64,000 nt of DNA from Candidatus Poribacteria bacterium (GTDB taxonomy: Bacteria; Poribacteria; WGA-4E; WGA-3G), in NCBI GenBank assembly GCA_965198235.1, contig OZ240248.1, positions 768,001 to 832,000 on the forward strand. Direction: 5' to 3'. The notes under the pieces were generated by a model. The model was not told where the DNA came from. It was given only the letters and a program-made list of their open reading frames with translations, and ran no database searches. Numbering within the stretch: the stretch's first letter is position 1; every line of letters starts with the position of its first letter. Of this stretch, positions 31,990 to 50,592 are shown in pieces. A program made the translations under genes and the position numbers.

Positions 31990-32361
31990 CTATGTATTCG
32001 AGGGTTTTTCCGCTTTCATCTTAAGAAATTCATAGAACTCGTAGAGCGTTTCCTTGTCTTTTTCCGTAAATTCCATCATCCCCTTGAACATAGCACTAAT
32101 CTTTGGGTCGGCTAAGAGGTCATCATAGCTTTTGTCGGCTTTTCCAAGTAGGTAATCGGTAGTGACTTTTAAAGCATCGGAAAGACTTGAAAGTGTTTTA
32201 AACGAGGGTTTTCGGGCTCCTGATTCAAATTGCGAGATCGCAGCAGGTGTTAGATTTGCCACCTTTGCAAGTTCTGTTTGTGTCAACTTCAATTCACGAC
32301 GACGCAGTTTTATACGTGAGACGACTTTATCTGTATTTGAGTCTCTTGATTCTCTGCCCAC
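31990..32361 (-). CDS. XRE-family HTH transcriptional regulator
   Basis: RIKLRRRELKLTQTELAKVANLTPAAISQFESGARKPS...TDYLLG. GTG start after AAGGAG. Confidence 0.92.
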   Translation of the reverse strand: MGRESRDSNTDKVVSRIKLRRRELKLTQTELAKVANLTPAAISQFESGARKPSFKTLSSLSDALKVTTDYLLGKADKSYDDLLADPKISAMFKGMMEFTEKDKETLYEFYEFLKMKAEKPSNT

Positions 32362-32541
32362 GTTAAGCTCCTTATTATTAAACAGCGAACTATTGTTATA
32401 ATACCGCTGAGTTTTCTTAAATTTCTTTAGCATCGCTGCAGCGTTGCAGTGAAATGTGGTTTTAAGGGAATTCTGCTTCAATGAGAGGCAAAAACGTGAA
32501 ATATATTTTAACCTAAAAAAGCCTTAAATGCAAATTTTAAT

Positions 32542-32571
32542 TTGACAAAAATTGCAATAATAATATACAAT
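32542..32571 (+). promoter_or_regulatory. Sigma70-type promoter for the giant FtsX operon
   Basis: TTGACA-18 bp-TACAAT in an AT-rich divergent intergenic region. Confidence 0.5.
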
Positions 32572-32886
32572 ATACATATTACTTTCTAAAATTACGCCAG
32601 TAGGCTCCGAAAACAGGAATCTATAGCGAAAAGCGACTACTTCATGATTTTCCGCGACACTTAAAAGAGACAGCATAAACGCGACCACCGAATCTAAAGA
32701 ACAACGGAGCTAACACGAAAAAAATAGAAAAAGATATATGAACCGCATTCCACTTTGTAAGAGTGATCGGATGCTAGGGGTATAATTTCTTTGCGCGCTG
32801 TTTTCCTGCGTATTCTCTCAGGGATACCCAAACGCGCTACAGAGGGAAAATCTGAAAAATCTGAAAAAGGCGGGAGACTTTACAAC

Positions 32887-35800
32887 ATGAAAATTCATAG
32901 TAGGCACGAGTGCAGCTTACGACGCTTCAGTGCACTAATAAATGTATTAATGTTTTTCCTTTCCGTTTTGCTTGTCACTGGGCAACTGCCCGATACTGCA
33001 TACGCGCAAACAGTTTCCAGTACTGGCATGAAATCTGCAGCCATTCAGATTCGGGATGACCTCTCTATTGGCAACATTCGAAAGGACATTGCACGCCTCT
33101 CAAGCCTCGACAGTCGGGTAACGGGCTATCCACAAGCTGCGAGTGGCAGCAAATACATTTTTGACCGTTTCGTCGAAATAGGCTTGCAAAACGTGGAAAG
33201 TCGCGAGTTCTCCGTCACTGTGCCGATCGACCACGGCGATAGCATCATTGAAGTACTCTCCCCAGAAGCCAACCTACTACATGCCTTTAAACTCACCCCA
33301 CTCTGGCCCAATCTTGTGCGGACCTCCCTGTTAGCAGACGGAATTAAACACACTGTGTTAGCAGGGGAAACACTTAAAGACATCGCAGAAAGTTACCAAG
33401 TTGATGAGACGACTATCCTTGCAGACGACCGGAACAAATTTCTGGCGACCCCAGTTGTCGAAGGAACCACCGTATTTATTCCAACAGGAGGTTTGTCTGG
33501 TCCCCTCCTTTACGGCGATGATGGCGAACTCGCCGATTTCAACGGCACCAACATTGGCGGATTTTGGCACAAGCTCCAAGATGGGGATACGCTCACAACG
33601 CTCGCTCGACGCTATCGTATCACCGAAGCCAGCATCACCGATGATATACTTAATGAACACCTGCAAAAAGCGTCCGATGGCATCGACAATGATGAGGATG
33701 GCACTATTGATGAATATGGCGAAATCCCCCAGCTTTCTGAAATCTTAGGGTGGGGAACAGATGGTATTGACAACGATGCAGATGGCTGGACAGACGAAAT
33801 TCCGGGGGACGACACTGATGAAATTGATAACGACAACGATGGACAAGTCGATGAATCCGGCGAGTTTATCGCCGCGAGTGAATCACATATCTTTATCCCG
33901 AAAGGGGCGATAGTCCTTCTCGATTTTAACTCCAGTACTCGTTATATCAATGCGGCAATGCTCGGTGGCACTGCCGTTATCTTTATCCAACCCGAAACAA
34001 CCATCCGAGGTGAAGCAGAAAATAAGTTCGGTACCGTCCCTGCTAATATACCACGATTTTGGATCTCCAAAGAAGATGCTGCTGTCCTAACCAATTTGTT
34101 GGAAGAACAACAGGCTCAGGGGAATCAAGTTAATGTTCGTGTCAGAGGTAAGATGACTTGGGAACGCCGCGTCGGGCAAAATATACGTGGGTTTTTGGAG
34201 GGTGGAGACCCGACCTTACGTGATGAACTCATCATTCTCACAGCTTATTACGACTCCATGTCTGTCGTCCCCGCAATGGCACCCGGTGCTGATCCAACTT
34301 GCGGTATCGCGACCCTCATGGAACTCGCGCGCCTTTTTAGTCAACCCCAATATCGGCCCGGCTATTCTGTTCTGCTTGTTGCAGTTGATGGACACTTCCA
34401 AGGGCTTGCGGGTATGCGCGCCTTCATGGAAGGCATTGGACAAGATATTGTCGGTTCTGCCACCAATTCACCCGGTACACCAACGATGCACGGACTTCGC
34501 CGTGGACTCTCTACAGATGTCATCGAATTTGAAGAATTGGGCAGAAGGCTTCTGCTCTCCATTGACCGGAGCGTCCTCGTCGATCTCCCTGCTGACTTTT
34601 TCCACGGTATACACAACGTAAAGTCTGACTTAGACTCCCTCACAACCACACTGGATGGCTTGGCAAAAACACGGTCTGAGATTGAATCTCTTACAGAGCA
34701 ACAGCGGGACTTTTCAGAACGCCAGAAGAAGCAGACAGATAGGAATCGAAAACGTGAAAAGCAAGGCTTCACAGGTGAAGAGAAGAGTCGTTTGTTAGCA
34801 AATCTTGCCCGCTCGAAGAAAGAGGCTCTGCAAACGACACATTTCCTCCGAGATATTGTCAGCAGGTTAGCTGAGGTTCGTGCCGTTGCACTCAACACGA
34901 GCCGATCCGCGCAGCGCGAATTAATCGAAACGCTTGGACTACCGATTGCCCGTCTTGACACATGGGCGGTACAGAAACTCACTCACGCTATAGAGACCGG
35001 TAACACCGACGAATATGGTACGCACCCAAATGATTCCTACCTTATTCCGGTGCAACAAGGTTCAGACTGGCAAGCCCTAACACCGGAAGACCTTCCACAA
35101 GAACTCGTCCCTGATATTGAGATGCTTAACAAAACCCTCGCAAACTGGGAGATGAGCGACAAACGCAAATTTGCGCTGATATGGACTCCCGAGAAAATAC
35201 TCGACCGGCATCTTGATTTACACTCACTCAACAAAGCGAAAGAAGCACGCAGTGTTTTACGAAATGCCAACGACTCCCAAGAAGTCGCGATCCAGCGAGA
35301 GAACCAGTTACTTGAAAAGGTTCTGGCACAAATACCTGACAGCCAACCCGTTGAAGATGAGATTAAAGGCAGCATTCGGCAACTCAAGGAAACGCCGATG
35401 GGGAAACCAAGCGGGGATTCTCTGATTTATGGCGGTAAGTTTTTGTCGAAAGCCGGGATAGAACGCCTTAACACTATTGATACCCAACTTCGACAGCGAT
35501 TAAACGAATCTGAAGACACCGTTGATGCTGCTATATTGATAGCCGATCTTCTCAAAGACAAACAAAGTATCTTTGAAATTGCCCTCCGCAACGCCCGATT
35601 GGAACGAACGCGTATCCAGAATTTGATCGCAACAGCCGGAACGTTAGGTCGGGAATACTTGGATGAAGAACGTCTCATTTTGGAAAACTACCTATCAGAT
35701 GATGAAGTCGAACAGGCACTTTCGTTGCGCTCCCGCATCTCATCACACATTAACGAAAAAGAACTGTTAGGGATCGTCAAAAAACGTGCGGACACAGACA

Positions 35801-38800
35801 TCGTAGCACTTGAAAATCTCGTTGAACGGTTACCCACATTAGATACCGATTTGGATGAAGAGACTAAAGTGCTCCTACGCGATAATATGCTGACGCTCCG
35901 AAACGCACGCTTCCGTAACATCCAGAGTCGCATTGAAAAGATGTTGCGCATTGACACCGACGAATACAATCGAAAACTCGGACAGATCGAGGCGGCTATC
36001 GCACTTCAAGACCTATTCAACCGGTATTATACCTCCCTCTATATTAGTATTGACTTCTCCTCACAATCAAATCAGTTCGGGGTGTTCAACAAGGGATGGT
36101 TCTACGATCAGCAACCCGAATTTGTATTACGTCGCGAGTTCGCAAGCATCGGCAATAAGCTTGCCGCTTACGCCGAAGATGCTGATTTCGGTGTCCGTGT
36201 CCGGAAACTCTGGCAGTGGACAGATGACCAAATTCGACAAGCCGTTATGGCAAGCCAATGGACGGTTGCAAACGGGATCTCTGATAAAGCAGCTCTTGAA
36301 GGGAAGACACTTGAAACGTTACTGAGCGCGCACTTCGACAAACTCACCGGTCTCAGCGGGGTGAGCCGACTGATGAAAATGCAGTTTGAACAGTGGCGTA
36401 ATCAAGGTGAACCCTCCGAGGATATGCTCAAGGATATGGACTATATCCGCAAAGAGGTCGAGCGTTTCATCCGAAATGATGTCCGCACTGCGAAGAAAAA
36501 TCGAAAGAATAATATCCGTACACGTGAGCAGCTGGACGCAATGCTACAGCTTCGATACGAAGACCCAGACACCTTTTCCGACGAAGAAATTGAGGATATC
36601 AAAACTCTTATTTCAATCGCGGGACTTGGGGGTGAGTCAAATTTCGTTAACGCCATCTCCGCAAGTGGCGGAAAGACTTGGAAAACCTATATCCCCGGTA
36701 AAATTGCTTTTGACAGTGAGGTCGCAACGCTTGTCGGAAAAACCGGAATCGCTTTTGCAACTATCGAAGATGCACGTGTCTTAACGGACACACCCCTCGA
36801 TACGATTGAACGCGTTGACTTGCGCGAAGGCGGTAATCTTCATCAGCAAGCACAGACATTGGCATCGTTACTCATCCAAGCACTTCGGGACGAAGAAATG
36901 CCTACCGCCGCACGCGTCGGGAATTTCTACTGCAACCTCTTTGGGGATGTCGTTGAATTTGACGCACGCGAGTCCGCACTACCGAATAAACCGGTACCTT
37001 ATCCCATCTTGACTCTCCGCAGGAAAAACAAAACCATGATGGGTGTCCGTGGGGACCTGTTTGTGATGGGCGATAACAAGGGCAACTTTGAGGTTGCCGG
37101 GTTAGCTATGGAAGGTAGAGCCACACGACGTCTCAAGGGGAAACAAGAAGTCGAAGCATATATTCTCGATCAAGATTCTGGAGATATCATCTACGCACCT
37201 GATTTAGGGAATTACGGTGCCAAGCTGCTTCCTAATGAAATTCCCATCAATACTCGTAGACGGGGTTGTCGGGTCGTCACATTTCCGTGCGTATCTACAA
37301 CTATCTACGACTTGGTGGATCAGCGGTACCTACGGACCTTGCGGGAACTCGAAGTCTATGATGCACTCACCGATAGCGCGCCGGAGAAGTTCGGGATGTC
37401 CAAACCGTGGCAGCAGCAAGGTGTGTCCGCAGCCGAGCCCATCGCTCTCGTGTATAGTAAGCCTAACACCCGCATTAAAATTGGGATGGCATACGGACAG
37501 ATCGGTAAACGACTCCTACTCATCAAAGCAACTAAGAGTGGTATGAAGAACCCGACGCTTTATACTGGTGAGGGGTTTGTCGTCCGCGAAAACGGACAAA
37601 TTCGCCTCACTCCATACGTCGTTGTCCGGGATATGTGGTGGCTCGATGAGAACCGCTCACGACTTTATAAACGGTTTGGTATCTCCAGCGACCGGCTTGA
37701 TAAACTCCATCAATTTGCGAATGATTATCTCGCACGAGCAGAGATTGAATTACTCCAAAAGGACTATCAACAAGCACTCAAACTCGCGCGTGCCGCGTGG
37801 GGCTACGAATCACGTGCATATCCGGATGTCAAACAGACCGGTAATGATGTCGTTAACGGTGTAATGTTCTATCTCGCTTTACTGATGCCGTTCGCGTACT
37901 TTATGGAGCGGCTCATTTTCGGTTTCCCAAATATCCACAAGCAGATTTTGGGATCGTTCGGCATCTTTTTACTTGTATTCTTCTTCCTAAGCCAAGTTCA
38001 CCCCGCATTCCAGATCGCGACTACACCTGTGATTATTTTGATCTCGTTCGTAGTGCTTGCATTGACGGTTATCGTCATCAGTATCATTGTCCGAAAATTC
38101 GAGGAGCAACTCGAAAAGATCCGGCAAGAAGGAAGTAAGGTTTATAAAGCAGATGTCGGCAGATTGAGTGCAAGTGCCGCCGCATTTAGTTTAGGTATCT
38201 CCAACATGCGGAAACGGAAAGGACGGACGATCCTGACATGTTGTACGTTGGTAATCCTGACATTTACTGTTATCTCGTTCACTTCTGTGCGAACGTTTAT
38301 GCACCCGAATAGAACAAGCCTCCCGCAAGTGACACCGCGCTATACGGGACTTCTTATCCGCGACCAGTACTGGCGCCCGCTTGAGGAACCCGTGCTCACC
38401 TCCGTGCTAAATGACATGCAAAAGACGCAGATCACACTTACCGCCTTAGAACGACTTTTGGCACGTAAGAACGAACTCTTAACCAAGCAAAGGCAACAAT
38501 CGATTGACATCACAGAAGCACGCAGGGCTTTAGAAGAGGGTGGCTTCATTGAACAAGTAGAGGAAAACCCCGTCTTGATCGTCCGGAATGTCGTCGCACC
38601 GCGCGCATGGTATCAATCCTCAGGAACTGGCGACCAATCGTTTGTCCAACTCACACGTACCTCAAACGTAGCAGATCCATCGCCTCCGACCCACCAACTC
38701 ACGGGTGAAGCGTTGACTTTCGCCGCAAACATGCTCGTGGGTATGAACGAATCCGAACCCGGTGTCAGCGGTATCGACAGATACCTCCAATACGGAAAAT

Positions 38801-40215
38801 GGTTCAACCCTGTAGACGCCGACGAATGGCCAACAGAATGGCCCTACGCCATCGTGTTGCCTAAAGGGATGGCAGAGTTGCTTAAGATCACCGAAAGCGA
38901 TATGGGCAAAGCCACCGTTTCTGTTTACGGCGCCGACTTCACCGTCGTCGGTGTCCTCGGTATCGGTTTCAAGGACCTCACCGATAACGATGGTGAAGAA
39001 CTTACACCCGTCGATTATCAGTTGATGCAACAGCAGCGGAGCCGCGGTGCCACTGGCGATGAGACACTTGAAGGTGAATTACAGAAGTACCTCCATCTCA
39101 CACCAGACAGCGTCGCCATCCTGCCATACGAGGTGGTCATGAATCAAGGAGGCACGCTTCGAAGCGTTGCTGTTAACATGGAACCGAGAGAGGGTGACCC
39201 GAAACTATTAGGTGCAACAGATAAGTTGGACCTCATCATGGCACCGCTCATGAACCGTATTGCCCTTGACTTCTTTGTCGGGCGCGATAAAGATACATAC
39301 CTCTACAGTAGTATCGGAATGACGAGTTTTAGTGGTATGGGCAACTTGTTTGTACCGATCCTGATCGCGGCTCTTATCGTCCTTAACACCATGCTTGGAG
39401 CCGTTTATGAACGGGTACGTGAAATCGGTATTTACAGTTCTGTCGGGCTCGCGCCTGTGCATATCGCCTTCCTTTTCCTTGCGGAGGCATGCGTATACGC
39501 CATCGTTGGTGCGGTGTTAGGCTATCTCATGGGACAAGCGATAGCGACAACCCTCGTGAATTTCGGCTGGCTTGCTGGGCTGACGCTCAATTACTCGTCA
39601 ATGTCAACCGTTGTTGCGACGATTATTGTCATGGCTGTAGTGCTGCTGAGTACACTGTATCCAGCGATCAAAGCCTCACGGATGGCGGTCCCTGATATCG
39701 AACGTAAGTGGAAACTCCCGGAACCTGAAGGTGACGTATGGCATTTCAACCTGCCCTTCACCGTCCTTGAAGAAGAGGCACTCGGTCTGAACGTCTTTAT
39801 GCGGGATTATTTTGAGGCACATGCAGACGAATCCGCCAGTGATTTCTATACAGATCAGGTTGCTTTCAGCCGAGCGGAAATCGAAGATTCCTACCAGATC
39901 GGGATGATGGTATGGCTGGCACCTTACGACTTGGGCGTGAGTCAGTCTATTCAGTTTGTTACATCCCCAGTCGGTGGTGAAGAAGAGGATCTCTACAAAA
40001 TCACATTGGATGTGCACCGCGAGAGTGGTGAGATTGCCTCTTGGAAGCGGGTCAACCGGCGTTTCCTCAATCTGCTGCGGAAACAACTTCTGATTTGGCG
40101 GACATTCAGTGTCGATATCCGGGCAGAGTTCCATGAACGTGGCAGAACTGAGGGCACTGACACACCGACAGAAGAAGCAGGACAGATGGACCCAGTACCG
40201 ACACCCGCGGATTAA
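32887..40215 (+). CDS. Giant membrane protein: signal, M28-peptidase-like/PA region with 2 LysM and 3 DxxDNDxDGxxDE repeats, coiled-coil inserts, C-terminal MacB/FtsX permease
   Basis: M28-like motifs SRVTGYP, ILTAYYDS..PGAD...GIATLMELAR and DGHFQGLAG. LysM motifs HTVLAGETLKDIAESY and HKLQDGDTLTTLARRY. FtsX motifs ISNMRKRKGRTILT and NTMLGAVYERVREIGIYSSVG. Confidence 0.85.
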   Translation: MKIHSRHECSLRRFSALINVLMFFLSVLLVTGQLPDTAYAQTVSSTGMKSAAIQIRDDLSIGNIRKDIARLSSLDSRVTGYPQAASGSKYIFDRFVEIGLQNVESREFSVTVPIDHGDSIIEVLSPEANLLHAFKLTPLWPNLVRTSLLADGIKHTVLAGETLKDIAESYQVDETTILADDRNKFLATPVVEGTTVFIPTGGLSGPLLYGDDGELADFNGTNIGGFWHKLQDGDTLTTLARRYRITEASITDDILNEHLQKASDGIDNDEDGTIDEYGEIPQLSEILGWGTDGIDNDADGWTDEIPGDDTDEIDNDNDGQVDESGEFIAASESHIFIPKGAIVLLDFNSSTRYINAAMLGGTAVIFIQPETTIRGEAENKFGTVPANIPRFWISKEDAAVLTNLLEEQQAQGNQVNVRVRGKMTWERRVGQNIRGFLEGGDPTLRDELIILTAYYDSMSVVPAMAPGADPTCGIATLMELARLFSQPQYRPGYSVLLVAVDGHFQGLAGMRAFMEGIGQDIVGSATNSPGTPTMHGLRRGLSTDVIEFEELGRRLLLSIDRSVLVDLPADFFHGIHNVKSDLDSLTTTLDGLAKTRSEIESLTEQQRDFSERQKKQTDRNRKREKQGFTGEEKSRLLANLARSKKEALQTTHFLRDIVSRLAEVRAVALNTSRSAQRELIETLGLPIARLDTWAVQKLTHAIETGNTDEYGTHPNDSYLIPVQQGSDWQALTPEDLPQELVPDIEMLNKTLANWEMSDKRKFALIWTPEKILDRHLDLHSLNKAKEARSVLRNANDSQEVAIQRENQLLEKVLAQIPDSQPVEDEIKGSIRQLKETPMGKPSGDSLIYGGKFLSKAGIERLNTIDTQLRQRLNESEDTVDAAILIADLLKDKQSIFEIALRNARLERTRIQNLIATAGTLGREYLDEERLILENYLSDDEVEQALSLRSRISSHINEKELLGIVKKRADTDIVALENLVERLPTLDTDLDEETKVLLRDNMLTLRNARFRNIQSRIEKMLRIDTDEYNRKLGQIEAAIALQDLFNRYYTSLYISIDFSSQSNQFGVFNKGWFYDQQPEFVLRREFASIGNKLAAYAEDADFGVRVRKLWQWTDDQIRQAVMASQWTVANGISDKAALEGKTLETLLSAHFDKLTGLSGVSRLMKMQFEQWRNQGEPSEDMLKDMDYIRKEVERFIRNDVRTAKKNRKNNIRTREQLDAMLQLRYEDPDTFSDEEIEDIKTLISIAGLGGESNFVNAISASGGKTWKTYIPGKIAFDSEVATLVGKTGIAFATIEDARVLTDTPLDTIERVDLREGGNLHQQAQTLASLLIQALRDEEMPTAARVGNFYCNLFGDVVEFDARESALPNKPVPYPILTLRRKNKTMMGVRGDLFVMGDNKGNFEVAGLAMEGRATRRLKGKQEVEAYILDQDSGDIIYAPDLGNYGAKLLPNEIPINTRRRGCRVVTFPCVSTTIYDLVDQRYLRTLRELEVYDALTDSAPEKFGMSKPWQQQGVSAAEPIALVYSKPNTRIKIGMAYGQIGKRLLLIKATKSGMKNPTLYTGEGFVVRENGQIRLTPYVVVRDMWWLDENRSRLYKRFGISSDRLDKLHQFANDYLARAEIELLQKDYQQALKLARAAWGYESRAYPDVKQTGNDVVNGVMFYLALLMPFAYFMERLIFGFPNIHKQILGSFGIFLLVFFFLSQVHPAFQIATTPVIILISFVVLALTVIVISIIVRKFEEQLEKIRQEGSKVYKADVGRLSASAAAFSLGISNMRKRKGRTILTCCTLVILTFTVISFTSVRTFMHPNRTSLPQVTPRYTGLLIRDQYWRPLEEPVLTSVLNDMQKTQITLTALERLLARKNELLTKQRQQSIDITEARRALEEGGFIEQVEENPVLIVRNVVAPRAWYQSSGTGDQSFVQLTRTSNVADPSPPTHQLTGEALTFAANMLVGMNESEPGVSGIDRYLQYGKWFNPVDADEWPTEWPYAIVLPKGMAELLKITESDMGKATVSVYGADFTVVGVLGIGFKDLTDNDGEELTPVDYQLMQQQRSRGATGDETLEGELQKYLHLTPDSVAILPYEVVMNQGGTLRSVAVNMEPREGDPKLLGATDKLDLIMAPLMNRIALDFFVGRDKDTYLYSSIGMTSFSGMGNLFVPILIAALIVLNTMLGAVYERVREIGIYSSVGLAPVHIAFLFLAEACVYAIVGAVLGYLMGQAIATTLVNFGWLAGLTLNYSSMSTVVATIIVMAVVLLSTLYPAIKASRMAVPDIERKWKLPEPEGDVWHFNLPFTVLEEEALGLNVFMRDYFEAHADESASDFYTDQVAFSRAEIEDSYQIGMMVWLAPYDLGVSQSIQFVTSPVGGEEEDLYKITLDVHRESGEIASWKRVNRRFLNLLRKQLLIWRTFSVDIRAEFHERGRTEGTDTPTEEAGQMDPVPTPAD

Positions 40216-40218
40216 GAT

Positions 40219-40350
40219 TTTCTAATTATTAAAATCTGGTCATCGTTCCACTACGTTTCACGATGGTTTTCGGTTAATTCTAACCGCAACTTCACCAGAC
40301 ATCTGCCCGAAACGAAGTGGAGGGCAGCTCAGAGGCACATAGTTAAAAAA
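40219..40350 (-). repeat. Complete palindromic element; inverted copy of 62598-62754
   Basis: The reverse complement TTTTTAACTATGTGCCTCTGAGCTGCCCTCCACTTCGTTTCGGGCAGAT...AAAACCATCGTGAAACGTAGTGGAACGATG matches both arms of the 62.6-kb copy. Confidence 0.8.
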
Positions 40351-40538
40351 TGGAAAAAGTAGCAAGCCTTATTATCATCATCGGCACCTTCTTATGGCTG
40401 TTCAGCGTTTTCGCCCTCGAAGGGCGTTGGCAATGGCAGATGTTCTCAGCCCTCGTGCTGGCGGTTGGTATTTTCTGGGCGCATTTCTGGGAAGAACTAC
40501 GAAACACCGATAACACCGAAGAATCAGACGAAGAGTGA
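40350..40538 (+). CDS. Small two-TM membrane protein with acidic tail
   Basis: 62 aa with two hydrophobic helices. Co-oriented inside the operon. Confidence 0.6.
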   Translation: MEKVASLIIIIGTFLWLFSVFALEGRWQWQMFSALVLAVGIFWAHFWEELRNTDNTEESDEE

Positions 40539-40694
40539 CGGACGAACAGAAGACCTGTAGGGTTGGAAGGTCTTTAGGAGTGCCACACGGGCAGTCCTCA
40601 TAGACTGATACAGAGCGAGACCGGAAAATGCCGACCAACCCCCCTTCCCAGTAACGGGTGGGGACCCCTGTCAAAAGAAAGGAGAACATTCAAT

Positions 40695-42683
40695 TTGGCG
40701 AGAGAAAGAGTATCACAAGCAGATGAATGGCAAGCTTGGGCACAGCGATACGACATTGAAGGCGGTATTCGTACCTTTGAGTCGGGGCTAACAGTTAAGG
40801 TGTTTGTTGGAGCACTTTTCGTTGGCTTACTGATGATGCCAGGTTCCATCTATCTCAGTTATGTATCGGGTGAATCCGGTGCTGGTGCAGCACCTTGGGT
40901 TGCCGTTATTCTATTCACCGAACTCGCGCGGCGTTCCTTTACAACTGCCCGACGACAGGAGCTTTATATGCTCCTCGGGTTAACAGGCGCAGCTGTTGGA
41001 AGTGGGCTCCAGTACCGGAACTTTATCTGGTACGCCTACTTTATCAATACCCCGCAGGCAGCTTCTTATGAAATCGCAGACAAAATCCCAGATTGGATCG
41101 TACCTGCAGGTGATTCTGTCGGCGTACTCACGCGAAGTCTGATACATCCGGACTGGTTTCTGCCTATCGGTATCTACCTCGTAGGAAAACTGCTGGGGAC
41201 ACTGCGATTTGTCAGTGGACAGTATATTCTGTTTCGGCTTACGGCAGACCTTGAACGACTCCCATATCCGATGGCACCGATTAGTGCCCAAGGGGCAACC
41301 GCACTCGCAGAAACGACAGGTAAAGAAGAGACCTGGCGATGGCGCGTTTTCTCCATCGGTTCTATGGCAGGACTTATCTGGGGGTTCCTCTATATCGGTG
41401 TGCCTTCGCTCACCGGTGTTATGATGAGCCAGCCGATTCAGATCCTGAAGATCCCGTGGATAGATTTCACACAGAGTATTGAAGGTTTCGCACCAACAGG
41501 TGTTTTCGCCTTCCGAACCGATTTTGGACAGATGCTCATTGGGTTCGTGATGCCGTTCCCGATTATCATGACAGAGTTTATCACGGCGATGGCATCGCAA
41601 TTTATTTTGAATCCACAAATTCTGTACCGCTACGAGATTCTTCATCAGTGGACCCCGGGTTTAGATGTCCGTGGTGTCGGCTTGTTCAACGGACTGGATT
41701 TCTGGATTAGTTACGGTATGGGGAAATCCTTTAGCCTTGCGCTCGTTGGAATGGCAGCTTCAATCCCGATGCTCGTTAAACTACGGAAATCCCAGAAAAC
41801 CGCAGGCGAACGCGGTTCCTTCGCGACCCCTCCGAACCGTGGCGATTTCCCAATCTGGTTGATGGGATTAATGTGGTTCATCGGTATGGCTGGATTCATA
41901 TGGCTCATCCATTGGATGGTTCCTAACTTCCCCTTGAGTTTCCTGATAGGCTACGCATTTCTGTACACGCCAATTAATTCGTATATTACCGCACGAACCT
42001 TTGGGGTCTTGGGGCGCGATCTCTTTGAAATACCGTATCTACACGAAATTACCTTTATTTTGAGCCGATACGAAGAGGTAGACATTTGGTTCGCACCACT
42101 CCCAGACGAAGATTATGGACGTGGCACCCAGAATTGGCGAGTCCTTGAATTGACAGGGACGACCTTCACTTCAAATCTCGCTGGCACACTGCTGATTATG
42201 CCGATTTTGCTTGTCAGTGGAATTGTGGTGCTTCACTTTATCTGGAAGATTGCCCCTATTCCGAGTGCACAGTATCCGTTTGCACAGATGATGTGGCCCA
42301 TTAACGCCACAAATGAATGTCTCTGGAAAACGTCGCTTCGGGATGGAAACAGCCAAATGCTTCAAGCGATTCGGGGTGATTACGTCGCCGCCGGATTTAC
42401 GTCAAGCCTCGCAATCTACGGGATGTTGTGGGTATTTAAACTACCCTCAATGTGGTACTACGGAATTATCGGTGGTATCGGCGCAGATCCGGGGGGCATG
42501 GTTGCACGGCTACTTGGTGCGATCATTGGACGGTTCTACATGATTAAGCGATTCGGGATGCGGCGTTGGTATATGTTCAACCCGGTCCTTGCAGCAGGAT
42601 TTGCCTGCGGGGTTGGCCTCATCGGCATGGGAACTGTAGCAATTGCCCTTGTTTCTAAAGCCGTAATCGTCAAACCGTTTTAA
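40695..42683 (+). CDS. OPT-superfamily-like ('peptide transporter') multi-TM protein
   Basis: TTG start after AAGGAG. Motifs FESGLTVKVFVGALFVGLLMMPGSIYL, WVAVILFTELARR and ERLPYPMAPISAQGATALAE. About 16 TM segments. Confidence 0.75.
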   Translation: MARERVSQADEWQAWAQRYDIEGGIRTFESGLTVKVFVGALFVGLLMMPGSIYLSYVSGESGAGAAPWVAVILFTELARRSFTTARRQELYMLLGLTGAAVGSGLQYRNFIWYAYFINTPQAASYEIADKIPDWIVPAGDSVGVLTRSLIHPDWFLPIGIYLVGKLLGTLRFVSGQYILFRLTADLERLPYPMAPISAQGATALAETTGKEETWRWRVFSIGSMAGLIWGFLYIGVPSLTGVMMSQPIQILKIPWIDFTQSIEGFAPTGVFAFRTDFGQMLIGFVMPFPIIMTEFITAMASQFILNPQILYRYEILHQWTPGLDVRGVGLFNGLDFWISYGMGKSFSLALVGMAASIPMLVKLRKSQKTAGERGSFATPPNRGDFPIWLMGLMWFIGMAGFIWLIHWMVPNFPLSFLIGYAFLYTPINSYITARTFGVLGRDLFEIPYLHEITFILSRYEEVDIWFAPLPDEDYGRGTQNWRVLELTGTTFTSNLAGTLLIMPILLVSGIVVLHFIWKIAPIPSAQYPFAQMMWPINATNECLWKTSLRDGNSQMLQAIRGDYVAAGFTSSLAIYGMLWVFKLPSMWYYGIIGGIGADPGGMVARLLGAIIGRFYMIKRFGMRRWYMFNPVLAAGFACGVGLIGMGTVAIALVSKAVIVKPF

Positions 42684-42921
42684 TCTTTTTAACTATGGGC
42701 CCCTGGTCACTGATCCATTACATTCCGCAGTGGTGTCTGGTTGATTCCGACGTGATTCGGAAGATGTACGGTTTTAAGGAAATCGCGAACTGGAACTCGC
42801 TCCTACAAACGTACATATCTTTAATTGCGTTGGGATTAATCAGAAACCATTGTGGAACATTGTCCTGCAAGCCTCTATAGGCTTGCACAAGGAACAATGC
42901 CCAGGAGTAATAAATTAAAAA
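42684..42921. repeat. Long palindromic element family copy
   Basis: TTTTTAACTATGGGC..TCCATTACATTCCGCAGTGG...CAGAAACCATTGTGGAAC..GCAAGCCTCTATAGGCTTGC..GCCCAGGAG..AATTAAAAA-ATG. Confidence 0.7.
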
Positions 42922-43956
42922 ATGGACTGGACTGTTTTTGGTTGGGCAGGCATAGAACTGGAAATACCCACGACATGGGAACTTAGTGGACTCAGCGGAG
43001 ATCAGAAAACAGGATATCTCCGGCTTGACGATGCAGAGATGCCTCGCCTTGAACTCAAATGGGCGCACACCCGACGCAAAAAGCCAGACCTTCATGCGAC
43101 GCTCGACGAATACTTCAAGTTGATTCGCAAGACTTATAAGAAAGGCACCGAACTCTCCTTCCGCCGGAACGTTAATTTCATCAAAGAAGATGAATTCTTT
43201 AAGGGACGCACCGTTCTCGGTTTTAGTTGGAAGGGGAGTATTCGCGCGAATGGGTTGATTTTCCACACCGGGAAACGGATTACGATCGTGCAGGTGATGG
43301 GACGGCTCAAGGAGAATTGGCGCCCCACGGTTCTTCGGGTTTTCGAATCAATTACAGACCGTGGAGACGCACCATTGACACTGTGGAGTGCTTACGGGCT
43401 TAAGTTAGGTGTTCCAAAAGAATACAAGTTGGAACGTCAGAAATTGCTCAGTGGGTACCTGTTGTTTACCTTCGTTGCAAAGCCTGTCCGCTTTCAAAGC
43501 GCAGTACGGCTTGCGAAACTGGCAAGCAACCGTCTACGGAACAATGGTTTTGTAGAAGATTTAGATACTTCTCCACCCGACAAAGGCCGGCTTAGCGTGG
43601 AACGGTACGGACCAGCAGAGGTGATGTTGAGCGACTATAAAGACGCTCCAAACCCATTAGAGGCATGGTTTCGCGCCAAATACACAAAAGCGATTCGTGG
43701 CTACGGGTTTGAAGTAACATCCGACATAGACTCAGAAGATGAACGTCTGACACTCATTGGACAACAGACACGGCTTTATGATGGGGTCCCACTTACACCG
43801 GTGTTGATGCTTGATAAACTTTCTAAACGTACAACACTTGTGTTTCATCTATGGCGATGCAATCATTCCAATCGTATCTATGTCATCCAGTCCATCGGCA
43901 GTACCGATGCGCGTTCGACCGTCCAAAAGGTTGCTGAAAGTATTGAATGCCACTAA
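42922..43956 (+). CDS. Hypothetical soluble protein with an internal two-fold repeat
   Basis: FGWAGIELEIPTTWEL...GYLRL and WSAYGLKLGVPKEYKL...GYLLF. Confidence 0.75.
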   Translation: MDWTVFGWAGIELEIPTTWELSGLSGDQKTGYLRLDDAEMPRLELKWAHTRRKKPDLHATLDEYFKLIRKTYKKGTELSFRRNVNFIKEDEFFKGRTVLGFSWKGSIRANGLIFHTGKRITIVQVMGRLKENWRPTVLRVFESITDRGDAPLTLWSAYGLKLGVPKEYKLERQKLLSGYLLFTFVAKPVRFQSAVRLAKLASNRLRNNGFVEDLDTSPPDKGRLSVERYGPAEVMLSDYKDAPNPLEAWFRAKYTKAIRGYGFEVTSDIDSEDERLTLIGQQTRLYDGVPLTPVLMLDKLSKRTTLVFHLWRCNHSNRIYVIQSIGSTDARSTVQKVAESIECH

Positions 43957-43967
43957 TAGTTATAAGT

Positions 43968-44030
43968 TCTCAGTTGTCAGTAAGAAAAACGTCTCTCTCT
44001 AATAACCGAATACTGAAAACCAACAACCGT
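43968..44030. repeat. Degenerate heptamer-repeat hairpin spacer
   Basis: TCAGTTGTCAG ... CTGAAAACCAACAACCG. Similar to 45396-45525 and 58553-58690. Confidence 0.4.
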
Positions 44031-44065
44031 ACATAAAAGATTGTTCATTCCAGACCCATTAAAAG

Positions 44066-44539
44066 ATGTTGAACAGAATTCTATATGCTCTCAAACTCAA
44101 GAAACGTCCGGATATGGACCGGACTCGGGTGATGAAGTCGTTCCCTGTTCGGAACCAGTTGATAACCTGGGAAATAGACGACAAAGGCGAAGCCTCACTC
44201 GTTGTTCCACAGAAAGACAAACTCTGGATCCGACTCGCCAGTAAGCTTTTTATGCTCCCGAATAAAAGGGTTATTGTATTAGATTCCATCGGAACTTATG
44301 TGTGGCAGATGTGCGACGGTAAGCATACCATTTCGCAGATCATAAAGGGGGTCCAAAAACAGTACCAGTTGACTCGGAAAGAAGCGGAAACGTCCCTCTT
44401 TACGTTTATGCAGCAGCTTGGCAAACGGAATTTTATAGGGTTCGCCATTCCTAACCCTCAACAGAACGCTCCTGTAACGCCCGAACCTGAACCTGAACCT
44501 GAAAAATCGGGACTCTTTGGGTTCCTGCAGAGGCGGTAA
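44066..44539 (+). CDS. Stand-alone PqqD-family (RiPP recognition element-like) protein
   Basis: IVLDSIGTYVWQMCDGKHTISQII...YQLTRKEAETSLFTFMQQLGKRNFI. Confidence 0.88.
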   Translation: MLNRILYALKLKKRPDMDRTRVMKSFPVRNQLITWEIDDKGEASLVVPQKDKLWIRLASKLFMLPNKRVIVLDSIGTYVWQMCDGKHTISQIIKGVQKQYQLTRKEAETSLFTFMQQLGKRNFIGFAIPNPQQNAPVTPEPEPEPEKSGLFGFLQRR

Positions 44540-44581
44540 GCCGTATCCTCATCGGAAACTTAGGTAAAATAGGAGAAAAAA

Positions 44582-45394
44582 ATGAATATACCAACAGAAA
44601 TTGGCGATGTTAGTGCAATTCTCGCCGAAACACCAGGAAAGTTCCAACGCGTCCTTCCAAAGGAAAATACAGTTCGCGTCCGGAACCTTATCAAGCGATA
44701 TGAGATGGGAACGCAGACCGTGGATGCCCTCCGCGGTGTCAATTTCCAAATCCAACGCGGCGAATACATTTCTATTATGGGTCCCTCCGGTTCAGGGAAA
44801 TCGACACTTTTCAATATGATTGGTGGTTTAGACAAACCGACCGAGGGGAGAGTTTACATTGACGAGGTGGACATCGCACAACTTGACGCGTACGAACTCG
44901 CGTGGCTCCGCTGCCGAAAAATCGGCTATATCTTTCAATCGTTCAACCTCATCCCTGTTATGACTGCACTCGAAAACGTCTCACTTCCGATGATTTTCGC
45001 CGGTATGAGTGCAGACGAAAGTAGAGAGAAAGGCGTTGACCTCCTTACACTCGTCGGATTGGGTGACCGCGTGCAACACAAGCCGTTAGAACTCTCCGGT
45101 GGACAGCAACAGCGTGTCGCAATTGCACGTTCGCTCGCAAACGACCCTGCAATCGTCCTCGCTGATGAACCGACAGGAAACTTGGACACTAAAACTGGAC
45201 TCGAAATCATCGCCCTACTCCGTCGACTCAATGCTGAAAACGGCGTAACCATCATCACCGCAACGCACGACCACAAAATGTTAGATGTCTCCGACCGTAT
45301 CTTCCACATGGCAGACGGTAAGGTGGACAAGATCGAGGGGCGCGATGAGATCGACCTCCACGTCGGTAAATTAGACGGTGAAGAAGTCGGATAA
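44582..45394 (+). CDS. ABC transporter ATP-binding protein, LolD/MacB type
   Basis: Motifs GPSGSGKS, IGYIFQSFNL, LSGGQQQRVAIAR, ADEPTGNLD and ATHD. Confidence 0.95.
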   Translation: MNIPTEIGDVSAILAETPGKFQRVLPKENTVRVRNLIKRYEMGTQTVDALRGVNFQIQRGEYISIMGPSGSGKSTLFNMIGGLDKPTEGRVYIDEVDIAQLDAYELAWLRCRKIGYIFQSFNLIPVMTALENVSLPMIFAGMSADESREKGVDLLTLVGLGDRVQHKPLELSGGQQQRVAIARSLANDPAIVLADEPTGNLDTKTGLEIIALLRRLNAENGVTIITATHDHKMLDVSDRIFHMADGKVDKIEGRDEIDLHVGKLDGEEVG

Positions 45395-47426: not shown

Positions 47427-50400
47427 TTAAAATTCTCTTTCCTCGTCAACCCTTGCGCGTTCAATGTCCTCTTCCAACTCCTCTATATATTTATCAAGCC
47501 ACTGTTTGACATTTTTGTCGTCTTCGTTGACTCGAATACGAAGGAACTTTTCTTTTTTTTCATCCAAGTGCAAACTACGAAGCCCCATCCACATCTCTGT
47601 TGAATAATTGGCTTGTAGATTGTCGCGAACATCTTCTCGATCGCCGTAACGAGCGAGGAACGCACGCATTAGGGAATTCGGCCATTCATCCGCTGAAAGG
47701 GTTTTAGGAACGAGTCTGTAGGCGAAATACCATGCCCGATCTTTTACATCCCTATCAATCCACTCCCAAATTTTTTCATGTGGAATTAAGTTTAACGCCC
47801 CTCTTTCATCCGTTGTTGAGAAAGGCTCTTTGGAATCCCCCTCTTTAAGCCACTCCTCTAAGAAAAAGTCACGTTCTTCTAGGCGTTTACTAACATGCTT
47901 CCAAACTTGCTCCGGATATCGTTTCGTCAACTCAGTCAGCACAGAGCATGTTTCTGTGTCGAATGCGCCAAAAATGGTGCCTTCCGTCCCAAAATGAGGG
48001 AATATTTTTTCGATAAACTCTAAACCTTTTTCTGGATAAAGGCGTAGGAACGCTTTCGCGATCTCTGTCCAATAGCGCTCTGTCATGGAGTTTAACTGAT
48101 TAGGAATCAAGTTCTCAAACGCGGCTGGACGAACAAGCAATTGGAACGTCAGGTCACACGGTAAAGCCAGCCGTTGTTTGCCGTAATCATAGTAGAAATA
48201 ATACAATTTGAGTGCAATTGGTACGGCTGAGTTGTCTGAACAACTCAACAGAAACGTAATCCATTTGGTGAAGACTTCATCCGATAAATTATTTGTTACA
48301 CGACTATCGAAGAAAGATGCAAAGGAGTTGACGTGCATAATCCCTTCTTCGGAAAGTTTGAGAAGACGCAAGCCCGCTCGGTCTGTTATGCCAGAACGAT
48401 ATGTGAGCTCTGGGATTAGTCCATTTAGCGTGGTATCTTCAACCAATACATCAAGTTGTTTTTCCCATTCTGCTACGTTGCCCTCAAAGAGTGCTCGGAA
48501 ATAACCACCCAGAAAGAACGCACTTGCATTGTCCCCTGCCTTCCGCTGGGTATCAAGAAGTGTTGGGAGCATCACAAAGCGATTGTCTTTTTTCCCGAGT
48601 CGATATCCAAACGCATATCCATTGTGAGCCTCGGTTGTAACGAGCCATGGTAACTCCGATTGTAATAGGGATGGATCAGCGATAGCTTGTTCGGCAAGCA
48701 CGTGAATTTGTGGATGTCCCTCCTTGAAGTAATTTTCGTTTTCGTCAACGACATCTATAAGTAGATTCATCCCAACGTACCGCCGCATCATGGAATGAAA
48801 GTCAGATCCAATCAATTCATCTCTGAGGTGCTCCCAACGTTGTCTTATGTCGTCGGGCAGATCCTTGCTATCACGACGAAGGAACTCAACAACAGTTTTA
48901 ACAAGCAATCTGTTATCAACATAAACCTTTTCGGCGAGCATCCGAATTGTGTCAATCACCATATTACTTAGATTCGGTCGCCTTGCAATTCGAGGGGCAC
49001 GTCGCAGCAAAATACCTACAGCTTCTTCACGTTCATCCTTCGGCAAACACTCGAATTGTTCCGACAAAAGTTGCCATACTTGACGGTAAGCATCAAAAAG
49101 TTCGCCGTATGTTTCGGGATCCCAAAAGTTGGCATCCTTGCGTAACCCTCGATACTCTGCACCAGACATCCGTGAAAAATGGTCGAACTCCAGTCCTTCA
49201 TTGCATGCTTTCAGTGCAAGAAGTCGTCGTTCTTTCGACCCAGATTCAAATGCTTCTTTCAAAACTGGTAACCGTTCCGCCGGGGATGCTTCAGTTGGAG
49301 CAACTCTGCCATGTCCTAACGAAAAGAGACCGGCAAATACGCCGCTGGCATTGTTTGACCAACTTTCATTCTCTGCTTCGCCGAGGGCAAGAAGCAATCG
49401 CGCGGCATCAACAAACAGGTCGCGTTGCATAGCAATCTTTTCCAATGCCCATACCACATCCCTTCGCCCGCTTGTGAATTGGAAAAGTGCATCCCTATCC
49501 CAGGTCCCCATCGTACGCATTAAGCATTCTAAGGCAGATTTGGGATCCGCTTCAGTCAGTGCGAGAAAAAAACGGCTACCCAACCTCGTCTTCAGATATT
49601 CACCGTCCTGAAAAGGCCCATTCGGACCGAGAAGGTTCCTGACAATTCTTAATGCAGGTTCTGATTCAGCGGCGTACTGAAACATTTCATGGAACCACTC
49701 AATCAATTTGGATCCAGGAGGCAAACCTTGTGTAAAGGTTTCAAGGTCAAAAGAGGCTCCGTAAATCCGCCACCATTCCACCCATAGCTTGATATGGAGT
49801 GCTTTTAGTGTAATGTAAAGCGTAGACTCGCCTTGAAGGATTTTGCGTTTCTTCAGATCATCAACAATTTTCTGAAATCTGCTCAAGGGAATCGGGGGGT
49901 TCGCTTCTTGAACCTTCTCAGCGATTGCTTGAGCGTCTCGGAATCAATTCACTCTGCGATTGACCTGGGAAAAAAGGAAATCGCATAGTTCCATCTTGAG
50001 ACCAGCTCTGATGTGTTTGAAAGTTCAATCCCCCGCGTTCATTCACCCATAATGCCAAAGATGGAAACATTTGAAGAAAACCGATTAAAGTGTTCTGGCT
50101 GCACACCTCAACTTTGGGATGCGAATAACCACACTGCTTTAGAAAATTCTCAATGTGTTCGAGAGTATCTCTACGTTGGGAATCAACCAAGTCTATCCCG
50201 GTGCAAACCAAAACATAAGTGCCATCATCAGTATCAAGACAGGCACGTATACTCTCGCCAAGGTTCTGCCGGTCAGGAGGTTTTGTACCGAAGAACTCCT
50301 TTCTAATCACCGATTTTTGCCACGGTTTAAACGATGCCCCCGCTTTAATTTGATAACTCGTTTTGCCCAGCTTAATTATGCCGCCCCCCGTCGCAATTTG

Positions 50401-50592
50401 AACGTCATCAACAGTAGCATCGACACCACCGTCCGGGACATTAACCCAACGAGAAACGTTAATCTTGCTAATTTCTATACCGAGCCGGCGCGCTTCCGCC
50501 CAAAGCAATTGCTGGAAAAATTCAACCGCTGTGTTCTGATTAAGCCGGGTAAGGTCTTCATTCCTTACGGCAAAAATAGTATCGTAGTTCAT
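47427..50592 (-). pseudogene. Avs/STAND-like antiphage gene: N-terminal PD-(D/E)xK-like nuclease and helical C-terminal region, central NTPase apparently deleted
   Basis: ORF 49918..50592 has PDGGVDA...YQIKAG and ORF 47427..49886 is long and helical. The two are joined out of frame near 49945 and no Walker A motif is present. Confidence 0.55.

Follow-up and report, generated by a model that had tools for sequence, protein, structure and literature searches.

A conserved gene cluster of Candidatus Poribacteria that may combine a type VII ABC engine with an OPT-like permease

In this study, we analyzed a cluster of six co-oriented genes, preceded by a divergent XRE-family gene, at positions 31990-45394 of a 64,000-nucleotide stretch of DNA from Candidatus Poribacteria bacterium (contig OZ240248.1, positions 768,001-832,000; hereafter the window, to which coordinates refer). 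The gene for a giant fusion protein, the gene for an OPT-like permease and their companion genes belong together and do not form a chance neighbourhood, because their order is conserved across phyla and the giant and OPT-like genes showed identical presence and absence in 61 of 61 Armatimonadota genomes. With moderate confidence, we propose that this locus holds most of the genes for one conserved envelope system, in which a type VII (MacB/FtsX-type) ATP-binding cassette (ABC) engine acts together with the OPT-like permease on a peptide-like ligand. All seven genes are present in the list of open reading frames (ORFs) of the window, in agreement with the original prediction, which had been made from the sequence alone. 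Domains were called with the Pfam and NCBIfam libraries. The six genes of the cluster are as follows.

32791-40215, plus strand: giant ORF of 2474 residues, opening at TTG
32887-40215, plus strand: giant fusion protein of 2442 residues, counted from the ATG at 32887
40350-40538, plus strand: small membrane protein of 62 residues, found in Poribacteria only
40695-42683, plus strand: polytopic OPT-like permease of 662 residues, putative distant member of the OPT superfamily
42922-43956, plus strand: tandem PsbP/Mog1-like protein of 344 residues (from a structure model), predicted to be cytoplasmic
44066-44539, plus strand: PqqD/RRE-domain protein of 157 residues (PF05402, E 1.4e-11)
44582-45394, plus strand: MacB/LolD/FtsE-type ABC ATPase of 270 residues (PF00005, E 8.6e-35)

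Conservation of the cluster across phyla

Genes for the giant, OPT-like, 344-residue, PqqD and ATPase proteins were found in this order in 44 of the 48 poribacterial loci, and the other four loci end at contig edges. A distance of 2-3.5 kb separates the giant and OPT-like genes in some poribacterial loci; two adjacent OPT-like copies in one genus may explain some of these gaps. Outside this phylum, 31 loci from Armatimonadota, WS1, Abditibacteria, Planctomycetota and Brocadiia were examined, one of which was uninformative because of a contig edge. In 23 of the 30 informative loci, the OPT-like gene immediately follows the giant gene, and among all 31 the ATPase was found in 9, a short FtsX protein (described below) in 9, a relative of the 344-residue protein in 9 and the PqqD protein in 5. 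Where the OPT-like gene was unlinked, one to five giant-family genes could be identified elsewhere in each of the five genomes tested (5/5).

An even draw of 61 Armatimonadota genomes was searched with profiles of the OPT-like protein, the giant ectodomain and the short FtsX protein. The first two profiles matched the same 46 genomes and missed the same 15, and short FtsX was present in 45 of the 46 genomes that have both the giant and the OPT-like gene. Among 41 poribacterial relatives, the OPT-like gene was found in 40 and short FtsX also in 40, the genome missed being a different one in each case. Thus, the co-occurrence across phyla that the original prediction had named as support for its claim was observed in both gene neighbourhoods and genome content. 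Several loci show an overlap, or no gap, between the 344-residue and PqqD genes. On the other side of the ATPase gene, the genes vary between loci, suggesting that the cluster ends at the ATPase.

No gene for a radical SAM enzyme, YcaO, LanM or lasso cyclase and no precursor gene could be identified in the cluster or its flanks, and none of these is conserved in related loci, so that the locus is indeed, as had been noted before, no standard cluster for ribosomally synthesized and post-translationally modified peptides (RiPPs). In locus L090 alone, one radical SAM gene follows the cluster. A conserved hydrolase gene beside the cluster was likewise not found in related loci. One or two prepilin-type N-methylation/DUF1559 genes were observed directly after the OPT-like gene in all four WS1-type and Armatimonadia loci with the ATPase upstream (L062, 12150-13922; L069, 12140-12868; L072, 11515-12441; L080, 10401-11477).

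Architecture of the giant fusion protein

The homologues of the giant protein are ~2443 residues long, which is near the 2442 residues counted from the ATG at 32887, and this ATG is therefore probably the true start of the gene; residue numbers given here start at the TTG at 32791. The expected fusion of ~2,440 residues with peptidase-like and FtsX parts was confirmed by this length and by matches to M28, LysM and FtsX models. From the N-terminus, the protein consists of a signal peptide, a PA/M28-like head with inserts, a beta-rich domain with a helical stalk, three transmembrane (TM) segments, an FtsX module and a C-terminal cytoplasmic domain.

32887-33006, plus strand: Sec-type signal peptide or anchor (residues 33-72; hydrophobic core 46-64, then AYA-Q)
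33334-33900, plus strand: Poribacteria-specific inserts (residues 182-230 and 256-370) with LysM-like segments and three Asp-rich DxDxDG-type repeats
33901-34446, plus strand: PA domain and N-terminal half of the M28-like domain, with degenerate catalytic/metal positions
34447-36024, plus strand: 526-residue insert (residues 553-1078) that splits the M28-like domain and is mostly gapped in compact homologues
36025-37848, plus strand: C-terminal M28-like half (with a second insert, 1130-1271), then beta-rich domain and three-helix stalk; no Pfam hit
37849-38088, plus strand: three extra TM segments (residues 1687-1766, from hydropathy) that join the ectodomain to the FtsX module
38227-39657, plus strand: FtsX/MacB-type module (TM1, ~350-residue extracytoplasmic domain, TM2-4)
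39682-40212, plus strand: conserved C-terminal cytoplasmic domain (residues 2298-2474, ~175 residues), 33-51% identical across phyla

The signal peptide was assigned from hydropathy and from a cleavage motif seen in the sequence. The M28 match (residues 464-547, E 2.5e-7) was partial, covering profile positions 1-78 of 193 only, and the PA match (residues 371-431, E 0.0053) was under the Pfam cut-off. LysM (PF01476) matched residues 187-211 with E 1.1e-6 and 29 bits versus a cut-off of 20.9, over profile positions 1-25 of 43 only. The three Asp-rich repeats, of the DGIDNDxDGxxDE kind and calcium-binding in look, lie at 33650-33850 (residues ~290-350), and the only NCBIfam match to them was a weak one to acid_disulf_rpt ('acidic double-disulfide repeat').

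The window's protein was aligned with 18 homologues from deep Poribacteria, Armatimonadota, WS1, Abditibacteria and Planctomycetota. It carries lineage-specific inserts at residues 182-230, 256-370, 553-1078, 1130-1271 and 1881-1933, of which the first two were gapped in all 15 compact homologues; compact forms of the protein are 1529-1895 residues long. Leu, Glu, Arg and Asp are abundant in the 526-residue insert, for which a helical or coiled-coil structure is presumed. The segment encoded at 36025-37848 is among the best-conserved parts, with 91-97% identity in 35 of the 48 poribacterial loci, 63-87% in 12 others that reach it and 31-54% in other phyla.

In the FtsX module, hydropathy placed TM1 at residues 1813-1833 and TM2-4 at 2187-2289, which is the four-helix topology of type VII ABC permeases. 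The FtsX model (PF02687) matched residues 2188-2298 (E 2e-12; 47.7 bits versus a cut-off of 25.5). The match to MacB_PCD (PF12704; residues 1960-2061) was weak (E 0.0027; 18.4-21.2 bits versus a cut-off of 27), and the isolated outer domain matched this model with E 3.9e-4, also under the cut-off. The best solved relatives of the module were LolC and MacB. For the C-terminal domain, we found no Pfam hit and no solved relative by sequence, and a direct comparison with the 344-residue protein showed no relation.

From the hydropathy layout, the ectodomain comprises ~1600 residues, and a basic linker stands between the three extra TM segments and the FtsX module. An exported N-terminus followed by three helices would return the chain to the cytoplasm, the side on which TM1 of the FtsX module needs to start, so that the predicted topology appears to be self-consistent.

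A head that keeps the M28-like fold and lacks the canonical site

The 830-residue ectodomain of L066, the most compact homologue, was modelled from the 19-row alignment with a predicted local distance difference test score (pLDDT) of 84.5 and a predicted TM-score (pTM) of 0.85. Foldseek matched the model to PA-containing M28 aminopeptidases, transferrin receptor 1 and GCPII over ~480-600 columns (E 1.7e-26 to ~1e-20); the top named match was 2ek8 (E 1.7e-26), and BSAP was also found. The beta-rich part (~530-750) and the three-helix stalk (753-829) of this ectodomain had no Foldseek match. HMMER aligned the M28 part of the window's protein to bacterial leucyl aminopeptidase and gave a better score to the pseudo-peptidase nicalin, its best solved sequence relative.

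Site positions were read against the Aeromonas/Vibrio aminopeptidase in 19 members of the family, which come from Poribacteria and a number of further phyla. The reference residues are those that we take to be His97, Asp117, Glu151, Glu152, Asp179 and His256, and their equivalents were as follows.

His97: Tyr or Phe (19/19 members)
Asp117: Asp, Glu or Gln
Glu151: invariant His (19/19 members)
Glu152: Phe, His, Ser, Cys or Gly (19/19 members)
Asp179: kept
His256: Ser, Ala, Asn, Gly or Phe (19/19 members)

Instead of the five metal ligands (His, Asp, Glu, Asp, His) and the catalytic Glu of M28 peptidases, the family has replacements at four of the six positions. Because of these replacements, the canonical di-zinc aminopeptidase site is, as judged from the alignment, absent from the head. 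The original prediction had the complex process a peptide, which assumed a working M28 peptidase; this part is not supported, since the equivalents of His97, Glu151, Glu152 and His256 are lost across the family.

The OPT-like permease

The 662-residue protein itself had no Pfam or NCBIfam hit, and PF03169 (OPT) did not match it at E <= 1. This model was reached by 3 of 14 aligned relatives (best E 5.3e-9) and, in precomputed tables, was present on 7 of the 120 listed relatives. The nearest named clusters by protein features were called 'peptide transporter' and carried PF03169 on 17-33% of their members. A profile of the family compared with solved structures revealed no relative by sequence. 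A crude, family-averaged hydropathy analysis gave ~12-16 membrane segments. The OPT-like character first described for this protein corresponds to a distant link seen in some of its relatives, and the accompanying figure of ~16 TM segments becomes the upper end of a range; the protein may be regarded as a distant member of the OPT superfamily. Its family spans Poribacteria, Armatimonadota, WS1, Gemmatimonadota, Abditibacteria, Latescibacterota, Planctomycetota and Brocadiia.

Genomes G032 and G038, which belong to one genus of the same order as the window's genome, contain two adjacent OPT-like copies that are 79% and 75% identical to that of the window. Weak, sub-threshold PF03169 matches were also seen in two ORFs of the window's genome (frames of 657 and 696 residues; contig 1, 4631188-4631931 and 1516582-1517217), and these frames have no detectable relation to the 662-residue protein.

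The ATPase and a short FtsX partner encoded elsewhere

The cluster ATPase has intact Walker A, signature, Walker B and H-loop motifs, as read from its translation, and is thus a cognate LolD/FtsE/MacB-type ATPase of the kind that characterizes type VII ABC systems. Its assignment as a LolD/MacB ATPase was upheld: the best NCBIfam models were LolD, DarD, DevA, YbbA, MacB and FtsE, all under their equivalog cut-offs (for example, E 2.6e-70 for the LolD model TIGR02211).

The list of parts given originally was incomplete, missing a short FtsX partner and a second ATPase that are encoded within the cluster in other phyla and 1.7 Mb away in the window's genome. The short FtsX protein (200-280 residues) matches PF02687, has no outer domain and was found beside the ATPase in Armatimonadota and WS1-type loci, lying within the cluster in 9 non-poribacterial loci. 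It was also found in all five genomes from other phyla whose fetched locus had none (5/5). In type VII ABC systems, a dimeric permease binds two ATPase subunits, and short FtsX is a candidate for the second permease subunit here. The orthologue in the window's genome is 47% identical to the L090 protein and is directly followed by a second MacB-type ATPase gene, whose product is 63% identical to the cluster ATPase.

contig 1, 2495156-2496572 (L091, 7153-8573), minus strand: short FtsX and second ATPase pair, adjoined by unrelated housekeeping genes

Further recombinations of these modules were observed. A PqqD, short FtsX and ATPase trio lies apart from the giant gene in an Abditibacterium, PqqD adjoins short FtsX in a Brocadiia genome, and a Planctomycetota genome has an OPT-like paralogue (35% identical, hhalign probability 100) beside short FtsX and an ATPase. 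In L081, PqqD is fused in frame to the N-terminus of short FtsX; this is the sole case seen, and it comes from a metagenome-assembled genome. Other long forms of short FtsX were considered as PqqD fusions and rejected: those of L102, L103 and L104 (Armatimonadota genomes G065, G079 and G105) carry a conserved non-PqqD N-terminal extension of ~140 residues, those of L105-L107 an upstream open frame and that of L108 an inserted outer domain, a variant also seen in L098 and L099. Besides the FtsX domains of the cluster and of its duplicate on contig 2 (see below), the window's genome has 20 further FtsX-domain matches, one of which is a 290-residue frame of ordinary FtsX size.

The PqqD, 344-residue and 62-residue proteins

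A free PqqD-family protein had been predicted, and PF05402 matched it with 45 bits versus a cut-off of 23.4, with weaker matches to several NCBIfam PqqD-type models. It has a 60-residue N-terminal extension, and its subfamily comprises 148 representatives at E <= 1e-30. The best 150 of 2658 profile hits span 94-256 residues, and none of them is fused. A word-indexed search also found no PqqD fusions among longer proteins, which is weak evidence, and an apparent PqqD-ATPase fusion in L046 contains a stop and was rejected as an ORF-extension artefact.

The 344-residue protein had no Pfam or NCBIfam hit and no detectable sequence similarity to known families. Its model (pLDDT 85.3, pTM 0.80) contains two tandem alpha-beta sandwiches with a PsbP/Mog1p-like fold, in accordance with the duplicated domain first described for it. 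Foldseek gave 13 Protein Data Bank matches at E <= 0.001, all of them PsbP chains or a PsbP-like photosystem subunit (best E 3.2e-5; TM-score by target 0.48-0.63 over ~160-230 columns), followed by weaker matches to Mog1p, TplEi/Tli4 and LpqN. Most relatives have a CxxC plus C...CH pattern, which is partly lost in the window's genus. Hydropathy indicated neither a signal peptide nor a membrane segment. A 314-residue ORF before PqqD in L098 was considered as a homologue and found to be unrelated. Co-folding of the 344-residue protein with short FtsX and PqqD scored 0.03, against a mark of 0.32, and speaks neither for nor against binding.

The 62-residue protein was detected by tblastn in 43 of the 48 poribacterial loci (33-89% identity) and in none outside the phylum. 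Of the two TM segments first assigned to it, one is strongly hydrophobic by hydropathy, and the second is weaker and was read by eye.

Regulatory gene, promoter, repeats and transcripts

Several features around and between the genes of the cluster were examined as well.

31990-32481, minus strand: XRE-family helix-turn-helix regulator (HTH_3, E 1.4e-15), divergent from the cluster
32542-32571, plus strand: sigma-70-like promoter match TTGACA-18-TACAAT (11 of 12 consensus positions) in the divergent gap
40216-40349, no strand assigned: dispersed intergenic repeat with ~35 further genomic copies
42686-42926, no strand assigned: second dispersed intergenic repeat, enclosing a 61-residue ORF at 42695-42880

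The XRE gene is a local feature that the system does not conserve: tblastn detected it upstream, in minus orientation, in 17 of the 48 poribacterial loci and in none of the 31 loci of other phyla. The gene is present as described, and its inclusion in the set could not be maintained. Similarly, the single promoter originally assigned to the cluster corresponds to the one consensus match listed above, whereas the region taken as a whole is no richer in promoter-like sites than shuffled sequences (13 versus 15.9). A terminator scan found no plus-strand terminator-like sites in the gaps of the cluster. The copies of the first repeat are 71-93% identical, and as RNA it folds better than shuffled sequences (z-score -2.95); the second repeat has ~10 further genomic copies. 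Both inflate RNA contig depth at their positions.

In four sponge metatranscriptome runs from one study, near-identical contigs covered the cluster, with 0-3 differences per long piece, and some of them run across the gap separating the 344-residue gene from the PqqD gene, and across the end of the ATPase gene. The metatranscriptome check proposed earlier yielded contigs over the cluster in all four runs; such contigs cannot prove a single transcript, and DNA carry-over is possible. For runs X3 and X4, stretches that contigs cover poorly or not at all are uninformative.

Rfam and tRNA scans of the window gave no matches. The whole cluster is duplicated in the assembly at 100% identity (window 31990-45394; contig 2, 24575-37979), and the second copy, on a contig of ~43.9 kb, could be an assembly duplicate or a real repeat. 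On the minus strand at 50658-53618, the window contains a gene for a 986-residue Eco57I-type restriction-modification methylase beside two unassigned ORFs (47427-49886 and 49918-50592).

Comparison with known systems

We compared the cluster with FtsEX-EnvC, FtsEX-PcsB/CwlO/RipC, YbbAP-TesA, LolCDE-LolA and MacAB-TolC. It shares with type VII ABC systems, as far as these are covered in the accessible text of the source, an FtsX-type permease (TM1, outer domain, TM2-4), a LolD/FtsE/MacB-type ATPase and an extracytoplasmic hydrolase-like partner (PMC12646458). Unlike in those systems, a stalk and three extra helices join this partner covalently to the permease, the partner appears to be an M28/transferrin-receptor-like pseudo-enzyme, and the putative second permease subunit has no outer domain. 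None of the known type VII ABC systems is mentioned in the same accessible text together with an OPT-like carrier, an RRE protein or a PsbP-like protein (PMC12646458).

The individual parts also have known counterparts. Transferrin receptor 1 and nicalin are non-catalytic M28-fold proteins that share with the giant's head a PA/M28 fold and lost metal or catalytic residues; nicastrin is another such protein. Transferrin receptor 1 and nicalin, however, are eukaryotic proteins that serve as receptors or as subunits of complexes and have one membrane anchor, whereas the giant protein is bacterial, split by large inserts in Poribacteria and fused to an ABC permease. The 662-residue protein resembles the OPT family (PF03169; TC 2.A.67) in size, polytopic build and the distant profile similarity of some relatives, although it misses the Pfam model; we know of no OPT protein tied to an ABC engine. 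With the chaperones of RiPP pathways (PqqD, lasso B1 and ScmD), the cluster's PqqD protein has the PF05402 domain in common, but it differs from them in its 60-residue extension, in lacking a precursor or modifying enzyme and in having FtsX, an ABC ATPase and a PsbP-like protein as partners. Each half of the 344-residue protein models as the sandwich of PsbP/Mog1p-fold proteins (PsbP, Mog1p, TplEi/Tli4 and LpqN), from which it differs in being tandem, cytoplasmic by prediction and without sequence similarity.

It should be noted that the PADLOC profile PDLC01991 ('CARF_m8--CARF_LolE_TM') matched giant residues 1980-2445, that is, the FtsX module and the C-terminal domain, with E 4.1e-48, suggesting that a related permease group has already been catalogued in a survey of CARF proteins. 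The match covers profile positions 274-688 of 810, leaving 1-268 and 689-810 unmatched, and the C-terminal domain of L066 alone matched positions 550-683. No CARF domain was seen in the window's giant protein, and where the CARF part of the profile lies is our inference. Other PADLOC matches, of the ATPase (mad3 and others) and of the XRE protein (capH and RmrA), were set aside as generic ABC and helix-turn-helix similarities. Database names of family members were 'hypothetical protein', 'M28 family peptidase', 'LysM peptidoglycan-binding domain-containing protein' and 'peptide transporter'. In a full-text search of the literature we found no description of the gene combination, in line with the claim of novelty made at the outset, although the classification of CARF groups behind PDLC01991 may bear on this point.

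Proposed mechanism and alternative explanations

Type VII ABC systems do work outside the membrane, and, according to the accessible text of PMC12646458, their partner proteins define their function. In the mechanism that we favor, ATP binding and hydrolysis by the LolD-like ATPase or ATPases would shift the FtsX helices and hence the outer domain and the attached head, a mechanotransmission on the pattern of FtsEX-EnvC, LolCDE, MacB and YbbAP-TesA. Since the head, a fused part of the permease with the M28/transferrin-receptor fold, appears to lack the canonical site, we read it as an ATP-moved receptor or clamp for a peptide-like ligand and not as an aminopeptidase. The strict co-occurrence of the giant and OPT-like genes suggests that both act on the same ligand, which the OPT-superfamily permease would move across the membrane. 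Because the RRE and tandem PsbP/Mog1-like proteins travel with short FtsX and the ATPase, they may be accessory subunits on that side of the system that bind a stretch of peptide belonging either to a subunit or to the cargo. We consider the ligand to be probably peptide-like, and we weakly favor import as the direction. In Poribacteria, the LysM and helical inserts are additions of this lineage and give a hint of a cell-wall-derived ligand there.

Several points weigh against this proposal. In 7 of the 30 informative loci of other phyla, the OPT-like and giant genes are unlinked, and gaps of 110-240 bp between the genes of the cluster, two of them filled with repeats, make separate transcripts possible. 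Related genomes are not independent, so that co-occurrence counts overstate independent support, and incomplete genomes may hide genes. The window's OPT-like protein has neither an OPT hit in Pfam nor a solved relative by sequence and only 3 of its 14 aligned relatives reach the OPT model, which means that a permease for peptides is deduced from a distant superfamily. In the head, an acidic residue or Gln is found at Asp117, Asp179 is kept and His is invariant at Glu151, and a non-canonical metal site or catalysis may exist. A cytoplasmic RRE protein would suit the export of a cytoplasmic peptide better than import. Finally, a pairing of a type VII ABC system with a secondary carrier is not mentioned in the accessible text of the source, which leaves such coupling without precedent there (PMC12646458).

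A more specific form of the proposal is a hybrid of primary and secondary transport, in which the fused receptor head of the type VII engine would load or gate the OPT-fold carrier, and the RRE and PsbP-like proteins would receive or deliver the peptide cargo inside. We consider this form possible but rather unlikely. Mechanotransducers of the type VII ABC kind do not themselves carry substrates through the membrane.

Peptide export is an unlikely alternative. It would have the RRE protein bind a ribosomal peptide that is expelled by the OPT-like protein and then released, trimmed or passed on in the periplasm by the FtsX engine and its head, in the way that MacB-type pumps expel periplasmic substrates. 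A genuine PqqD/RRE domain predicted to be in the cytoplasm, its fusion to the N-terminus of short FtsX in L081 and the pairing of PqqD with short FtsX in several phyla, with an ATPase confirmed alongside in the Abditibacterium locus, are consistent with this idea, as are the good scores, though under cut-offs, of MacB-type ATPase models from bacteriocin and darobactin export. However, neither a precursor gene nor a modifying enzyme lies in the window or is conserved in related loci, the genes 3' of the ATPase vary, and the sole small ORF, that of 62 residues, encodes a membrane protein limited to Poribacteria. Moreover, the system is near-universal and mostly single-copy in the sampled Poribacteria, unlike typical accessory RiPP clusters, and the head lacks the canonical peptidase site that trimming would require.

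We regard it as equally doubtful that the system is a controller of wall remodelling of the FtsEX-EnvC/PcsB kind, whose engine would switch a degenerate head that activates or positions wall hydrolases, with the OPT-like protein recycling peptides. FtsEX governs periplasmic hydrolases through partners of this sort, as described in the accessible text of PMC12646458, and the giant protein combines a degenerate hydrolase-like domain, as in EnvC, with LysM segments and a helical-looking insert of 526 residues in Poribacteria. These LysM segments and the insert are nevertheless lineage-specific, and their lack in all 15 compact homologues means that they cannot define the ancestral job. In addition, no hydrolase gene is conserved next to the cluster, and the genome has its 20 other FtsX-domain matches, including the frame of ordinary FtsX size.

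Nutritional scavenging, with the head as a working, unusual exopeptidase on external peptides and the OPT-like carrier importing the products, appears still less probable. The M28/PA fold, the neighbouring gene of the OPT superfamily and the acidic residues at the Asp117 and Asp179 positions, together with the invariant His at Glu151, would fit it, but the four canonical replacements occur in 19 of 19 members, and this reading leaves no role for the FtsX engine or for the RRE and PsbP-like proteins. That the genes are functionally independent and merely adjacent, as the gaps, the repeats and the unlinked OPT-like genes might suggest, is highly improbable given the order retained across several phyla, the identical presence and absence in 61 of 61 Armatimonadota genomes and modules that recombine yet remain together.

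Implications for envelope biology

The genes described here represent a large cross-phylum group in which we found no precedent for the fused pseudo-enzyme, the OPT-like carrier, the short FtsX without an outer domain or the RRE and tandem PsbP-like partners. They offer a test case for whether a mechanotransducer can couple to a secondary carrier and for a role of RRE proteins outside RiPP biosynthesis. Being near-universal in the sampled Poribacteria and present in three quarters of the sampled Armatimonadota, the system probably serves a core function of the envelope in several phyla that have been little studied, dominant sponge symbionts included. If the hybrid form of the proposal is true, it would provide a new way to power a secondary-carrier fold, and a core role in the envelope would be common to Poribacteria, Armatimonadota, Abditibacteria, WS1, Gemmatimonadota, Latescibacterota and Planctomycetota.

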